From: Bacteroidota bacterium
GTDB taxonomy: Bacteria > Bacteroidota > Bacteroidia > AKYH767-A > 2013-40CM-41-45
Reading direction: 5' to 3'
Assembly: GCA_016708785.1 (NCBI GenBank)
Contig: JADJFC010000009.1
Span: 3,496 to 67,495, forward strand
Length of the DNA: 64,000 bases
The position numbers were made by a program. Shown in pieces: positions 15,001 to 33,000 of the stretch (position 1 is the first letter of the stretch; each line of letters starts with the position of its first letter).

Positions 15001-18000
15001 TCCAAAATCAGTTTTAGAAATACCAAATCCAAGTGGTAAAGGAAACCCACATCCAACTGCAAAACCTGTTGATTTAATGAAATGGTTTATTGAACAGTAT
15101 TCTTTGAAGGTGATATGGTTTTAGACAACACAATGGGAAGCGGAACAACTTGTTTAGCCGCCAAAGAACTGAACCGTAAATTTATCGGTATTGAAAAAGA
15201 ACCTAAATATTATGAGATTGCCTGTCAGCGATGCGGTTTTTAGCATTACCGCTAACGTTTTCGGGCTTGGCGAAGTGGCTGAACCCGAAGCTAAATAGAA
15301 TTACAAAACTTTAAAATTAAAAACGAATGATTGATAGAATTACTGAACAGCCATTTTGCCAAACCCGTGTTATGTGCAGGGCGGTTGATAACCTTGAACT
15401 CCTTTTGTCGCAACCTGATGAAAGTGTAGATTTGATTTACTGCGATATTCTTTATGGAACAGGTAGAAATTTCGGAGATTATAAAGATTTAAAGCCAATA
15501 CGAAGCGAAATAGAAAGCCACTACCTACCAAGACTTATTGAAATGAAACGAGTTTTAAAAAGCACAGGTAGTATATTTTTGCAAATGGATAACAAAATTA
15601 ACCATTGGATTAGATGCTTATTAGATGAAGTTTTTGGATATGAAAATTTTAAAAATGAAATCGTTTGGCTTTATGGTGCAGGTGGTTTTAATAAAGAATT
15701 ATTTTGCAATCCAAAACACGATACAATTTTTGCTTACTCAAAAACAGATAAATATACAAACAACAAACTTACTGATAATGTAAACGGTGCAAGATTAAAA
15801 AGTTGGTGGCGTATTAATTCAATAGCAGATAAAAGCGGATATTTAAAAATTGATAATGAATTTCCACTTTACAGAACTCAAAAGCCAATAGAATTGATTA
15901 AGCAAATTATTTTAATGGCTTCAAACGAAGGAGATACTGTTGCAGATTATTATTTAGGTAGTGGCACAACCGCAGTAGTTTGTAAAGAACTGAACCGAAA
16001 TTTTATAGGTTGCGACATTAATCCAAAGGCTATTGAAATAACAAATGCTCGTTTAGATGCAGTTTCGTAGCCTTGCACATAACGTTTTGCGGCTTTGCGA
16101 AGAAGCGGATTTCGGAGCTCTAAACTGTCAACATAGCACAAAAGTTGATGCGAGGTAGAATGCTCAATTAACCACTGAACCCGCTTTTTTGCAAAACCGC
16201 TGTTACCTGCTGGCCTTCTGTCCACCGTGTCGCTGTATGCCTTGTCAATATTGAGTTTCAGTGTCATTGTCTGCTGTGTTTGTTGGGCTGTGTGTCGATG
16301 TATTTTTATTTATTTTTGAAGCGTTGGGAAATTTTTTAAAAACAAAAATTTTTTCAGTTGTGCAAAGCAAGCTCTTTTGAAATTTTTGGTTTTTGCGTTG
16401 GCTTGTGCGAATTGCAAATGTGCTTGCTTTTAGGGGACATATAGTCTACTTTTTCTTGTTTTTTAGGAAAGTTGAACAATAAACTGGTCAATATAGGAAC
16501 AAAGAAAATTGCAACTGTCAAAACTGAAATACCAATGTCAGCTGTGTGGCTTGATAGAAATTTACTAACTGCACTTTCAGGGTAAAAATGTTCGTATAAT
16601 GAAAGTGTTAATTTAATACCAAGTATTGCAATTACGATAAAAGCGGCTGTCTCAAGAAATGGATACTTACCCATTAGTTTAACAAACCATTGAGCAATAA
16701 ATCTCATTGCTAATATTCCAATAAACACACCTGCACAAACTAGAATAATATTTGGTGTGAAAGCTACAAGCAAAAACATTGTCTATTGAAAAGCCATATC
16801 CATTTAATTCGACAAGGCAAACTGTTGACCAAAAATTGCCAAGAGTACCAACGGTTGCTCGATACAACCAATTACTATTTTTGTCAAGAATATCATCGTC
16901 TTTACTTTCGGTCTGTTTACCTTTCCAAAAATCGTAAACAAGGTAAAGAAGATACAATCCTCCAAGTGGTTTAAGCCACCAAATTTTAATAAGAAATGCT
17001 GCGAAAATCATAGCCAAGCCTCTGAAAATATACGCTCCCCAAATTCCATATTTTAAGGCTCTGTCTCTTTGCTTTTCTGGTAGATCCATTACCATAGTTG
17101 CTAATACTGCCGCATTATCAACTGAAAGCAAACTTTCGATGATAATTAAGTTCCTATTATTGCTAATGAAGCTCCAGGGTTGTTTACGATTTGGTCAATT
17201 AATTCTTGCATATTTATTTATTTGATTAGAATGAGCTCTTTAAACAAGACTCCAACTGAAACAGGTTTTGTTTATAAAGCTCAATTTTGTGATACTCATT
17301 TGCGTAAGACATTGTTATTAACTCACTCCAAATCTCAAATTTCTCATTCTTTATCAAGAAAGTTATAAGCTTATTAGAGATTCTCATTATTTTGACTTAA
17401 GATGTATTTGGTAGTTCTTGTGGTAATTCGATAATCATCAGAAGTTATTACTTCAAAAGTTTTGTGATTTCATTAATAAATTGGTAATTTAGATAGTTCT
17501 CAAATGATGGACACACATCAGAGTTACTTAGCTTGGCAAAATACAGGAAAAAGCTATTCGTTTCAATACCACTGCTGTCTAGCAAATTCTCTACCACCCT
17601 TTGGTGAGTGCCTGTAATAGAAATGTCATCGATGAAAATACATAAATCATCTTTTGCAGGTAAGGTAATAAGTTTGTATGTATCGTTTTTAATAAGATTA
17701 AACCGTTCTTCTGCTGTTAGTGCCCCGTAATCTTCTGTATATGTTTGACAGCGTTCAATTTTACCAAACTCTATCTGGATAGTTTCAATTCTTTTTGCTG
17801 CCAAGAATTGCTTGAAGGATTTGTAAAATGTATGTGTCAAATAATAACTCGAGGTTGGTATTTGCATATAGGGACTGCTATACACAATTATTTTTCTATG
17901 GTCACATACGAGTTTATCAAAATGAAAAGCTTTAAAGAATTCAAACAAATCTACTCCAAATTTTTGCGCTAAACTATAAGAGCCAAACTTGAATTTGCTG

Positions 18001-30000: not shown

Positions 30001-33000
30001 TCATTGATGTTTTTTTTTAAAGATTAAAACCAGTTTCCTAATTTGCCGTTTTTGAACACTTTGCTTAACACAAAGCCCAAAACAATATACACTACGAATC
30101 CAATACCAGCAGCTATTGGAAGTGATGCCATGTAATCATCATAGACCATTTGATCATTTTCAGGATTTGGAGCCAACACGAATGCACTTAGAACATAGAA
30201 TAAAACGGGATTAAGGATTGCCATGACCCAGAACCACATTTTGCGTTTTCCCGGGTCTTTAGGGTTAGCGCCACCTTCAAATTTAATGGCATTAGAAATA
30301 ACTGCGGCTATTAAAATGAATAAACCGGCTGCAATGATGGAAGTGATGTAACTGTTCATGTTCTTAATTTTTATTGTTTGATTTGTTGATTATTCAGATT
30401 TAGTGGAGTTTCCTAATTTAATGTAGTAGGAATACAAGATTTTACCTTTAGGGCTAACGGATGGTTCTTGAAGCGAATTTCTTATAGCTTCTGCCAAGGA
30501 ATTATTTATTTTATCCTTCTGTGTAGTTGAACTCCATTGAAAATCGTTGTTGAATATTTTCACTATTAAATGTAGCGTCTTCAATTACGTAACCGATTCG
30601 TAATAATGCCGTATTACTTTTAATGTTTTTAAGCTTGTAATTTTTATGAAAATTTGTTATTAGCTCTACTTTTTCAGGAGAATTTTTAAGATGGTCTGAA
30701 AAGATTTGTTCATCATGAGAAAACAGCTCTTCCCAAGATTCAAGAGGTTTTGGATTCCCAGAAACGAAAATCCAATCTTTCTTTAATTCAGTTTTATCCT
30801 TTTCATAGCAAGCAGTTACTATAGGATCTTTTTTGCTTTCGTCAGACCATACATCATTTTTACCTTTATCTTTAGTCATTTTGGGTTGATGATTTTTTGC
30901 CTCTTCACATTCTGCATAGTGTTTATAATCGTCAGTAGCGTCATATACCCTAACAGCAACCTTATTTAGTTTATAGGAAGACTGATCAGAAGCGTTTAAG
31001 TATAGCTTTGCAAGGAAAATTCCATTCTCCTTATCAATAATATTCTGTACATACTTATCAACATCCGCATTCCAAACTTTATTGATGCCAATTACCTCGT
31101 AAGGCAGTTTCTTATCTAAACATGCATTACTATTAAAGTTTTTCCATTGGTTAAACTGCTTATTTTGCATGCCAGTGAAATCTTTCCCTCCATAATTATT
31201 CGTAACAGAATATGGATTGTTGTTCAAGGTAAATTCTTTAGTTGTATAGCGGTCCTTTAATGCATCGCGAACCATTGAAATCATACTAGACTCATTTGCA
31301 CTTCCATGAGTGAAAACTGTAAAGTACAAATGTTTTGCACTTTTTATCTTAGACTTATTATTAACTTCCTCATAATCGGTGTAAAAGAAAGTTATTGAAT
31401 TACCTTTTTTCAGCCAATTAATAAAGTAACTCTTGGGATAGTTTTCAAACTGTTCCTTACCATCAGTAGTATACTCTTCATAATCGGATACTAATAAGGC
31501 ATCATTGTTTCCCTCAGTTATTTTCTTTAAGGTCTCTTGAATAGGCGCCATTATATCTTTGTACTGTTTTGGGTCAGAAACTTTATTAAAGAGCTCGTTA
31601 CTATTGTAGTCAAGAGGATTAATTTTGCCACCGCCCAAGGCAAACCATTCAATATCAGGATTTACAAGCTTATTTGTAATTGCTTGTATAATCTGAACAT
31701 TTTGAGGGTTTTTTAGTGTACGCCTGAACTAAACCGTCAGAAAAATCTATGTAAACGGAACTTTTCCCAGATTTAGGATTGGAAGATTCACCCAGACTAG
31801 CACTGTAATAACCATCAATGTATTTTTCAACTTCTTTTTCAGGATGAAAATTGGAAAAAGCTTTTTTTTCACCACTGTCACCGCAGGATGATAAGAAGAC
31901 AATACCTCCTGCAATAGCAGGAATCACGATTGATTTTAAAAATTTAACTTGCATGCCTATTTGTTTTTATTATTAGTTGAGTCTGTTATTCCTTCAATAA
32001 AACCATCCATTTGGTTACCGAGGTCTTTTACGGATTCTTGAAAATCATTAATTCCCTTTTTTACAGCAACAGCAAAATAACGACCTTGCAACTTTCCAAT
32101 CTCTTTTACCTGTTCATCGGTGTATTTATCTCTGTTTTGTTCCAAGTCACTTTCAAGCTCTTGCATCTTTTTTTCAAGTGTAGACCAATCTTTTGCGGTC
32201 ATTTCTTCTTTGTTTTGCTCAGCATATTCAATTTCTTTTTCAGCTTTATCAAGCCTTGATTGCACATTGTTGCAGCTGCTTAACGCTATAAGTAAGCCTA
32301 ATAAAAGTATCGTTTGTCTCATGTCTTTAAATTTTGTTTCAATATTAGATATTTTTTTTGAAACTATCGGTAAAAATGGCTCTATTGGTTTTGCGAAGTG
32401 TCGGCTTGTGTTTTGGGCAAACCAAATGTGCCATTTGTGCGGCTGGCTAAAATTGTTTTTAAAAAATGTGTGGTGGAAAAAAATAAAAATACAGAAGCGT
32501 TGGCTTTCGGGTCGGCTGTCTGATGGTTCATTTGTCCAGTCACTTGTTTACGCGGCCCCTTGGGGCCGCCCGGCGGGTGTTTTGTTCGAGTTGATGCACC
32601 TGGTGCATTTACATCCAGATTGGAAGACCCTCTTCATGTTCCTTTTATGTTTTTAGATTTAACTTTTATTGCGGAATGCATGATTATTTTATATTATGCA
32701 GAATTAAAATTTATAACAATCCGTATCGATTTGAAACTGTAACCACACGGCCTTACAATTATAGTTATTTTTTCTTTTACTTTATAGATTTCCCTATAAA
32801 TCTAGCTGATCCAATGGATTCTTTATCTGATCAAAACCTTTTGTTGTAATATGTGTGTAAATTTCTGTGGTCTTACTGCTTTCGTGTCCTAGCAGACTCT
32901 GTATATACCTTAAATCAGTGCCATTTTCGAGTAAATGAGTTGCAAAAGTGTGTCTCAACGTATGAACTCCAACATTTTGCTTAATTCCGGCTTTCGTAGC

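Follow-up and report, generated by a model that had tools for sequence, protein, structure and literature searches.

The window analysed here is a stretch of 64,000 nucleotides (nt) from a Bacteroidota bacterium (GenBank assembly GCA_016708785.1, contig JADJFC010000009.1, positions 3,496 to 67,495 of the forward strand). Within it, the minus strand from 16354 to approximately 32570 carries all open reading frames (ORFs) of a single operon, as delineated by ORF calls, three-frame translation and Pfam. In this operon, two TerD paralogues are found together with a divergent tubulin/FtsZ-like protein and a large protein bearing an Hsp70-type nucleotide-binding domain (NBD). The Ter, HAD-PRTase, TolB-OmpA and DUF4339-DUF805 genes named in the initial annotation of this DNA were all located on this strand by Pfam. 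The operon genes are given below in frameshift-corrected window coordinates.

31957..32570, minus strand: N, small coiled-coil lipoprotein, DUF6565-like, 204 amino acids (aa) in an intact relative
30390..31954, minus strand: A, lipoprotein of ~521 aa without a family match, the first conserved core gene
30024..30359, minus strand: B, inner-membrane protein of 111 aa with three hydrophobic helices
28346..30004, minus strand: C, very probable tubulin/FtsZ-fold GTPase of 553 aa, a divergent relative of Pfam Tubulin_2
24450..28340, minus strand: D, protein of ~1296 aa with an Hsp70-type NBD
23027..24448, minus strand: E, protein of 473 aa with a putative degenerate Hsp70-like NBD and a proline-rich linker
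22468..23024, minus strand: F, GYF_2-DUF805 membrane protein, a clade-specific accessory
21920..22447, minus strand: TerD1, TerD paralogue with a canonical GDNRTGEGEGDDE calcium-binding motif
21195..21850, minus strand: TerD2, TerD paralogue with a divergent metal site
~20503..20983 (limits approximate), minus strand: CW_7 protein, membrane-anchored and Ser-rich, with a C-terminal CW_7 (Cpl-7-type) repeat, frame-shifted
20303..20488, minus strand: J, hydrophobic peptide of 62 aa, with 71% identity to a 62-aa product of the related locus L002 (tblastn)
~18750..20300 (ends approximate), minus strand: K, periplasmic PD40 (TolB-like) beta-propeller with an OmpA-type peptidoglycan-binding domain
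17448..18773, minus strand: L, HAD phosphatase fused to PRTase_3 (ComF-like), ORF intact
16354..17211, minus strand: M, TerC-family integral membrane protein

The arrangement of these genes is far from chance, and they constitute one conserved operon. Protein C, stitched across its frames, has 1765 relatives, the best 120 of which are 65-94% identical and 534-562 aa in length, except for one of 482 aa; all of these 120 are named 'hypothetical protein' or are unnamed, and a minority bear a precomputed Pfam Tubulin or Tubulin_2 assignment. Relatives occur in at least 313 of 185,579 species genomes (one genome per species), a lower bound, as the scan used two peptide patterns only. Eighty loci were fetched, with titles naming Bacteroidota except for three (uncultured Akkermansia, Oscillospiraceae and the generic 'Bacteroides sp.' metagenome-assembled genome (MAG)). 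The classes named in these titles are Sphingobacteriia, Chitinophagia, Flavobacteriia, Bacteroidia and Saprospiria, and the carriers include Pedobacter, Mucilaginibacter, Chitinophaga, Flavobacterium, Saprospiraceae, Prevotella and Muribaculaceae.

The gene order is matched in Pedobacter sp. PACM 27299 and in one metagenome contig, and it was tabulated by tblastn across 83 sequences, namely the window and 82 related loci, where many of the absences are contig ends. Gene C is present in all 83, D in 82, B in 79, A in 78 and E in 73, followed by TerD1 and TerD2 (66 each), an OmpA-type gene (58) and TerC (20), with GYF_2-DUF805, CW_7 and HAD-PRTase genes in 8, 5 and 4, respectively. The order A-B-C-D-E-TerD-TerD-OmpA(-TerC) on one strand is found in 66 of the 83, and order and strand are invariant. 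Based on these counts, the core is defined as A-B-C-D-E-TerD-TerD-OmpA. The window also carries all four of the clade-specific additions, TerC, HAD-PRTase, GYF_2-DUF805 and CW_7. The initial annotation had proposed that Ter genes, an Hsp70-like ATPase and a tubulin-like protein belong together, and this is borne out by the 66 of 83 sequences in which the TerD pair comes after the core; homologues elsewhere are indeed co-located with Ter genes. At three Bacteroidales loci without the TerD pair, a gene encoding ZnR and DO-GTPase2 stands right after E (L074, 18229-19425; L080, 18148-19344; L082, 11884-13071; PF19993 at 27.2-33.9 bits, with a Pfam cutoff of 27). More distant variants place a ~470-aa protein, a ~150-aa protein, a tubulin-like protein and a large protein in the same layout, and one of them, with no TerD, has a Pfam HSP70 match in a protein of 1196 aa.

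Protein C is very probably a divergent GTPase of the tubulin/FtsZ superfamily, nearest to Tubulin_2 (PF13809). Across 81 orthologues, the T1 loop GGTG is conserved in 96% and the T4 loop GSxFGGTGAS in 100%, and HMMER aligns both with the T1 and T4 loops of FtsZ and CetZ. An invariant TGG..Q.N..H..E (residues 315-328) lies just before a predicted helix at 325-340 (H8) and is a candidate T7 loop, with a spacing unlike NxDxxD/E and a low-confidence loop in the model. In Pfam, the window gave a sub-threshold Tubulin_2 match, as well as a sub-threshold MreB match, and the C homologue of L002 reaches 23.7 bits for Tubulin_2 (cutoff 27) and 21.9 bits for Tubulin PF00091 (cutoff 33). An exhaustive profile search with C returned 1741 clusters (50% identity). 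In a diverse set of 45 family members, 26 match Tubulin_2 (best E=4.6e-11) and 16 match Tubulin (best E=1.5e-8). An AlphaFold2 model was made of P0001, a protein 94% identical to the C of the window, and Foldseek paired it with FtsZ and tubulins at a probability of 0.69-0.99, with E-values of only ~0.01-0.08. By this model, solved tubulin/FtsZ structures are the closest fold for C. The tubulin/FtsZ-like loops that the initial annotation had noticed at 28417-30004 are thus conserved T1/T4 motifs in a protein with tubulin-type structural matches, and the gene actually spans 28346-30004.

Protein D is Hsp70-like in its NBD only, and is not an Hsp70 chaperone proper. Modelled as the 1150-aa fragment P0167 and searched against the PDB with Foldseek, its top 50 matches are all Hsp70 NBDs (DnaK, Hsc70, BiP, Ssb), the best at E=1.3e-4, with probabilities mostly of 0.9-1.0 (minimum 0.82) and template modelling scores (TM-scores) of 0.24-0.40 on the target. 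The low TM-scores are attributed to inserts and to the moderate model, with a predicted local distance difference test (pLDDT) score of 62.5; a disordered Trp/Gly/Ser-rich insert divides the NBD. Three motifs occur in order in 75 orthologues, namely the phosphate-1 motif DFGSTN (98-100%), the phosphate-2 motif DxGGSTTD (96-98%) and the adenosine motif FAGKGxR (90-94%), and HMMER aligns phosphate-1 and phosphate-2 to the Hsp70 structure 4gni. Beyond the NBD, the C-terminal part of the model is a short helical stretch, with no recognisable substrate-binding domain. D has no Pfam HSP70 match at E<=1, and no family could be assigned to its N-terminal ~590 aa. Against PDB sequences, profile searches with C, D and E reached no better than E=0.4-3, in matches confined to the nucleotide-binding loops. 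From their modelled folds and conserved nucleotide-binding motifs, C and D are likely to be active NTPases, and the fold check displaced neither the tubulin-like protein nor the large ATPase from its claimed superfamily.

The initial annotation had placed a second actin-fold ATPase beside D, and here the evidence divides the pair: D stands on its Foldseek matches and three motifs, and the Hsp70 matches of E are non-significant. E may on balance have a degenerate ASKHA fold, a reading we hold with modest confidence. It is without phosphate-binding motifs, KISKQ replacing DxGTT in the orthologue alignment. With hhalign, an approximate DnaK sequence and a three-sequence Hsp70 alignment served as targets, and the profile matches to Hsp70 NBDs are colinear and non-significant (E=0.56, 0.021 and 0.1). 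E shows no similarity to D (hhalign probability 0.3%) and is therefore not a detectable paralogue of it. In L037, a Prolixibacteraceae MAG, E carries, fused to its C-terminus, a canonical Hsp70 NBD with GIDLGTT and DLGGGT motifs (15544-18249). A 731-aa ORF follows this fusion in L037, where no TerD is found.

Most of the shorter E orthologues (395-580 aa) bear a proline-rich linker that ends in a PP(L/P)PP(K/I)K(K)-type peptide, which is PPPIKKK in the window copy. The GYF fold binds proline-rich peptides. The accessory protein F matches Pfam GYF_2 (formerly DUF4339) at E=6.8e-11 and DUF805 at E=0.0054. In the window, the proline-rich C-terminus of E (23027-23200) adjoins the gene for F, with its GYF_2 domain at 22870-23024. 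F occurs in 8 of the 83 related sequences, whereas the proline-rich E tail is widespread.

The remaining products give the operon its membrane link, which had been claimed from the outset and is upheld: they span the envelope as lipoproteins, a protein with three transmembrane segments, peptidoglycan-binding domains and TerC. A lipobox-like motif lies within the first 40 residues of 55 of 75 A orthologues. N has a lipoprotein signal, with DUF6565 in its L084 and L085 orthologues, and B has three hydrophobic segments by hydropathy. Given the lipoproteins A and N, the helices of B and the peptidoglycan binding of the OmpA and CW_7 domains, the system would extend from the periplasm and cell wall to the cytoplasm. 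When intact orthologues were scanned, no model of Pfam, NCBIfam, PADLOC or PHROGs matched A, B, D or E above threshold, and three protein families without a Pfam or NCBIfam model, those of A, D and E, are thereby defined. The gene described earlier as a Cpl-7-like 'tail protein' is instead a membrane-anchored, peptidoglycan-binding CW_7 protein; its CW_7 segment at 20506-20655 is matched by the L002 CW_7 protein (tblastn, E=2.4e-9), and Pfam finds CW_7 in the L002 and L072 orthologues. K matches PD40 (E=5.4e-8) and OmpA (E=0.0032) in Pfam, and is 67% identical to a 515-aa protein of L002. Most other loci have a ~230-aa MotB-like OmpA protein in place of K, and ZorB/MotB models match the OmpA-type domain. 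The cytoplasmic N-terminus of this short protein (L001, 18136-18828, and orthologues) has two conserved 'FDLNK...KFDLTKG' peptides. These resemble the N-terminal strand of TerD proteins and may hint at a docking site for TerD.

Among the Ter-type proteins, TerD1 matches Pfam at E=4.6e-55 and TerD2, as a truncated ORF, at E=6.9e-17; TerD2 continues over two frames with 78-83% identity to an L002 protein (tblastn). TerC scores 98.7 and 37.8 bits in two overlapping, frame-shifted ORFs, and tblastn with the L085 TerC covers residues 1-272. L combines PRTase_3 (E=2.7e-37) and Hydrolase (E=1.7e-5) domains. No Pfam match to TerA, TerB, TerZ, TelA or TerY was found in the ORFs of the region or in L001 and L002.

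These gene models required correction, as about 15 one-base frameshifts disrupt operon genes within 16 kb, at sites that three-frame translation places next to homopolymer runs. C has five, in homopolymers, and D four. Others lie in N (~32418, homopolymer), in A (indels at ~31709 and ~30548), in F (~22690), in TerD2 (~21425) and in TerC (~16730), and the C-terminus of K is also frame-shifted. The contig used for comparison, L083 (JAGNOO010000076.1), is from a Bacteroidia MAG and is 99.5% identical to window 25567-32550. The two differ there by 19 substitutions and by 12 indel events, and 10 of these indels are single-base differences within homopolymers of 3-6 nt. The genes of L083 are unbroken, at 521, 111, 553 and at least 925 aa, and N of L083 aligns to the window with 99% identity in two frames (tblastn). 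P0172, a protein encoded on L083, is almost identical to the D of the window and runs uninterrupted across three of its frameshift sites. Over window 25567-37792, which includes the integrase/HigB flank (98.4% identical), there are 17 indel events (18 gap positions) against L083 at 98.4-99.5% identity, mostly in short homopolymers. Because such homopolymer indels are absent from a 99.5%-identical MAG with intact genes, the frameshifts are read as sequencing errors, and the window as an intact system in an error-prone assembly. ORF calls elsewhere in the window are probably broken likewise. The correction also revises the large ATPase, which had been described as a protein of about 1070 aa with a 330-aa extension: it is instead ~1296 aa, with an N-terminal region of ~590 aa.

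Copies of the operon are found in both mobile and chromosomal settings. Relatives of C are present on 22 IMG/VR contigs. In one of these, L090, an operon with the full A-E, two TerD and CW_7 set is directly preceded by genes for a MobC/NikA-like protein, a MobA/VirD2 relaxase, a product of 255 aa and a tyrosine integrase (4459-7834), and a second IMG/VR contig, L099, has the same upstream layout. Since relaxase and integrase genes directly precede it, the L090 operon is taken as cargo of an integrative mobilizable element. Many copies are chromosomal, without mobility genes within 10 kb. The neighbours in L085 are a type I restriction-modification system, SLFN_AlbA_2, SNase and an rve transposase, and those in L002 are Peptidase_M78/HTH and AAA_14/DUF4143. 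A 360-aa HSDR_N/PD-(D/E)XK protein occurs in 14 loci, and in most of these its gene immediately precedes A. From 40 representative loci, which cover 35 of the 38 upstream-flank clusters and also take in L006 and L046, 149 flanking ORFs were surveyed, with matches to HSDR_N_2 (9), HSDR_N (8), SNase (5), DDE_Tnp_1 (2), HNH_2 (2) and DO-GTPase2 (2). SNase recurs near the operon, in the window, in L085 and in four other loci.

In the window itself, the flanks contain the following, the two upstream entries being assigned by Pfam through the near-identical L083.

32794-34428, minus strand: upstream flank, tyrosine recombinase/integrase, outside the conserved operon
34650-35243, minus strand: upstream flank, HigB-toxin/HTH-antitoxin pair, outside the conserved operon
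14468..16070, plus strand: downstream flank, two N6_N4 DNA methyltransferase genes (Pfam E=1e-42 and 7.3e-10)
12031-13155: downstream flank, DDE transposase (DDE_Tnp_1/DUF772)
10259-10819: downstream flank, SNase of the secreted staphylococcal nuclease type (Pfam E=2.7e-20)

The block had been described as lying between repeat copies. A copy of a ~100-nt intergenic repeat does stand at its low end, just downstream of TerC (16082-16181, related to 13674-13773 at 71-74% identity, with weaker copies near 2.0-3.0 kb and 8.0-9.0 kb). As none was found at the 32.3-kb end, the bracketing is not adopted. The repeat has no tRNA or Rfam match, and tRNA and Rfam scans of the window gave no matches. Elsewhere in the window, an apparent second, separate Hsp70-family gene lies on the minus strand at 3484-5971, split by a frameshift, with Pfam HSP70 matches on ORF 5489-5971 (E=1.3e-19) and on ORF 3484-5127 (E=1.6e-14), the latter with a long non-Hsp70 C-terminal part. 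A 356-nt direct repeat (8205-8560 and 10852-11207, 98% identical) flanks the interval 9420-10819, which holds a 280-aa ORF and the SNase gene. A tandem array of ~80-nt units, with at least 6-7 copies at 63-97% identity, occupies 62645-63258.

We tentatively favour, at somewhat less than even confidence, the reading that the operon is a mobile, envelope-spanning conflict or acute envelope-stress system, in which TerD gates the assembly of a tubulin/Hsp70-like effector. The analysis shows the gene content, the folds of C and D, the conservation of their nucleotide sites, the gene order, the mobility context and, in three loci, the DO-GTPase at the TerD position; which signal is sensed, in what order events follow, whether C polymerises and whether defence results are inferences, as is the choice between defence, stress and membrane remodelling as its function. 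At the front end, N, A, B, the OmpA/MotB-like and CW_7 proteins and TerC would register or transmit a perturbation of the envelope. The two TerD paralogues would form the switch by binding calcium and possibly a nucleotide derivative, and in this organism the HAD-PRTase would make a nucleoside-like ligand for them; this layer would turn an ion or metabolite signal into a decision. As effector, C would polymerise under the membrane, D would drive or remodel its assembly, and the proline-rich tail of E, a possible ligand of the GYF domain of F, would make E an adaptor. The assembly would alter the state of the membrane or of cell division, with the effect of blocking an invader or arresting the cell. 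With either TerD or a DO-GTPase following E, we infer a constant effector in the form of the tubulin/Hsp70-like core, with TerD and DO-GTPase as alternative regulatory modules. A narrower version, in which an immune or envelope-alarm system uses a host-encoded cytoskeleton as effector and a TerD calcium/nucleotide switch triggers the assembly of C and D, with a DO-GTPase as the switch in sister systems, is possible and more doubtful. If true, the operon would be the first known case of such a system, TerD and DO-GTPases would be interchangeable triggers, and TerD would gain a concrete downstream target.

Several observations weigh against this proposal. C is 65-70% identical across classes and D 54-57%, and such high conservation of C with a near-invariant architecture is unusual for defence genes. 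PADLOC v2 holds no model for the core proteins, and Pfam finds no DO-GTPase in the operon of the window. The metabolite step would not be general, because just 4 of the 83 sequences have HAD-PRTase and 20 have TerC. The structural models are of moderate confidence, with a pLDDT of 69 and a predicted TM-score (pTM) of 0.77 for P0001 and a pLDDT of 62.5 for P0167, and the tubulin-type matches of C are weak and interleaved with short-chain dehydrogenases (probability 0.2-0.6). In 19 loci of the Sphingobacteriia, Flavobacteriia and Chitinophagia (e.g., L001, 3399-5743, and L084, 3929-6328), the operon has upstream of it genes for a TPR histidine kinase (555-573 aa) and for a response regulator of 222 aa, along with a divergent ORF of ~300 aa, which suggests dedicated transcriptional control. 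Additionally, nine Sphingobacteriaceae loci (Pedobacter, Mucilaginibacter, Hufsiella) share their upstream flanks. Shared flanks and two-component genes fit a regulated physiology as well as they fit defence.

A rival reading is a regulated housekeeping or envelope-maintenance cytoskeleton of the Bacteroidota, which we regard as rather unlikely. A tubulin-like filament and Hsp70-like ATPases would organise outer-membrane/peptidoglycan tethering, vesicle formation, cell shape or else a developmental transition, with Ca2+/Mn2+ control through TerD and TerC, and the upstream two-component system would switch it on. The conservation of C and D, the fixed architecture, the kinase and regulator genes in three classes and the upstream synteny in three genera speak for it, and membrane remodelling has been proposed for FtsZl1 operons with OmpA (PMC2875224). 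However, a maintenance function sits poorly with the patchy distribution (at least 313 of 185,579 species genomes), with carriage as cargo of an integrative mobilizable element and next to integrases, transposases, restriction-modification and toxin-antitoxin genes, and with the three loci in which the TerD position holds a DO-GTPase gene.

Classical Ter chemical-stress resistance, to tellurite, oxyanions, metals or pore-forming toxins, is less probable again. TerD, TerC and HAD-PRTase would then do the work, with the tubulin- and Hsp70-like proteins as scaffolds or chaperones of the membrane complex, particular to the lineage. Two TerD genes, TerC and HAD-PRTase_3 are signature Ter parts, and TerD1 retains the canonical GDNRTGEGEGDDE calcium site. 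Nevertheless, the invariant part of the operon is A-B-C-D-E, with TerC in 20 and HAD-PRTase in 4 of the 83 sequences; TerD is missing in the distant variants and a DO-GTPase stands at its position in three loci, and TerA, TerB, TerZ, TelA and TerY are not found in the region. Very improbable is a maintenance or partition function, with a TubZ-like tubulin and an ATPase of the actin superfamily serving to segregate or position an integrative or plasmid element: some copies do lie beside a relaxase and integrase or on IMG/VR contigs, but no TubR- or ParR-type DNA-binding adaptor was detected in the operon, lipoproteins, transmembrane and peptidoglycan-binding proteins and TerD dominate it, many copies are chromosomal without mobility genes within 10 kb, and D is of Hsp70 type at ~1300 aa, not of ParM or Alp type. 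Least probable of all, that the window copy is a decaying pseudogene cluster without function in this organism is suggested by the ~15 frameshifts in 16 kb and was rejected on the indel pattern, as the differences from the intact, 99.5%-identical L083 over 7 kb match that of sequencing errors and comparable indels occur in the flank too.

The mechanism of the Ter proteins has been obscure for decades. A TerD pair within an operon with tubulin/FtsZ and Hsp70 classes offers a testable downstream partner for TerD. If C polymerises on a signal, as the proposed conflict or envelope-stress system would have it, this would represent a new use of the bacterial cytoskeleton and a new accessory module of the Bacteroidota. 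Carriers include gut Prevotella and Muribaculaceae, and among the others Pedobacter, Flavobacterium and Chitinophaga are cultivable, with genetics feasible.

Among known systems, the Ter systems are tied by prior work to resistance to phage, colicin and tellurite, as summarised in PMC7824862; in the summary of Anantharaman et al. 2012 given there, TerD, TerC and HAD-PRTase are the signature of Ter neighbourhoods and HAD-PRTase is predicted to make a nucleoside-like metabolite. The operon resembles them in its multiple TerD paralogues, TerC, HAD with PRTase, membrane association and carriage on mobile elements. It differs in that TerA, TerB, TerZ, TelA and TerY/vWA were not found here, and in that the Ter genes form the variable periphery of the core. 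Because TerB, TerA, TelA and TerY are missing, it is only a peripheral Ter system.

The FtsZl1 operons described by Makarova and Koonin in 2010 (PMC2875224), which include OmpA and were proposed to act in membrane remodelling, are similar in joining a divergent FtsZ/tubulin protein (FtsZl1/Tubulin_2) to OmpA-type and membrane proteins. In contrast, their vWA protein and P-loop GTPase were not seen in the window, L001, L002, L084 or L085, which leaves OmpA as the sole shared partner, and in the tables of PMC2875224 neither TerD nor any of the genera Pedobacter, Chitinophaga and Flavobacterium is listed. Filing the operon as an FtsZl1 operon was rejected, as the vWA protein and P-loop GTPase are missing.

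In the FtsZ-FtsA system, a tubulin-fold filament is tethered by an actin-fold protein. The likeness lies in a GTPase of tubulin fold that is paired, at the membrane, with a protein of ASKHA fold, and in a disordered linker with a short conserved C-terminal peptide, a probable docking element. In the present operon, linker and peptide belong to the putative ASKHA protein E instead of the tubulin, the ASKHA proteins are Hsp70-type rather than FtsA/actin-type, and there is no link to cell-division genes.

Further parallels concern the predicted conflict systems of Kaur et al. 2020 (PMC7159879), cited here from the part of the text available. In these computational predictions, the DO-GTPase is the switch of GAP1 conflict systems, and GAP1-N2 systems recruit tubulin, Hsp70-NBD-only, GYF-transmembrane and peptidoglycan-binding proteins in membrane-proximal operons, the tubulin and Hsp70 themes being 'non-overlapping' and from Firmicutes and Actinobacteria. 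That part makes no mention that we found of a TerD pair, lipoprotein A or protein B, and the supplement, as far as it was available, has no relevant entries. The present operon differs in that the window copy is without a DO-GTPase and without a detectable GAP1 or FNIII component, and filing it as a DO-GTPase system was rejected, as the GTPase and GAP1 are missing; for A, D and E, no GAP1-type Pfam match was obtained at E<=1, where GAP1 models may lie outside the Pfam set scanned and the N-terminal region of D may yet be a remote homologue. It further differs from GAP1-N2 systems in having tubulin-like and Hsp70-like proteins together, in Bacteroidota.

The initial annotation had regarded the pairing of actin- and tubulin-fold proteins as without precedent in Ter systems. 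In agreement with this, a literature search yielded no paper joining TerD, tubulin and Hsp70 as one system, though Anantharaman et al. 2012 might mention the neighbourhood. Against it, tubulin and Hsp70 were already predicted in DO-GTPase/GAP1-N2 systems (PMC7159879), and DO-GTPase2 stands at the TerD position in three loci, so the pairing is less unprecedented than claimed. In fact, the operon shares with DO-GTPase/GAP1-N2 systems the tubulin, the Hsp70 without a peptide-binding domain, the GYF-transmembrane protein and the peptidoglycan-binding proteins, and three loci with the A-B-C-D-E core carry ZnR-DO-GTPase2 after E. With DO-GTPase2 at the TerD position in these three loci, the core is linked to the predicted DO-GTPase conflict systems. 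This suggests a role for TerD as a switch, and joins two sets of computational predictions, those of the Ter systems and those of the nucleoside triphosphate (NTP)-dependent conflict systems.

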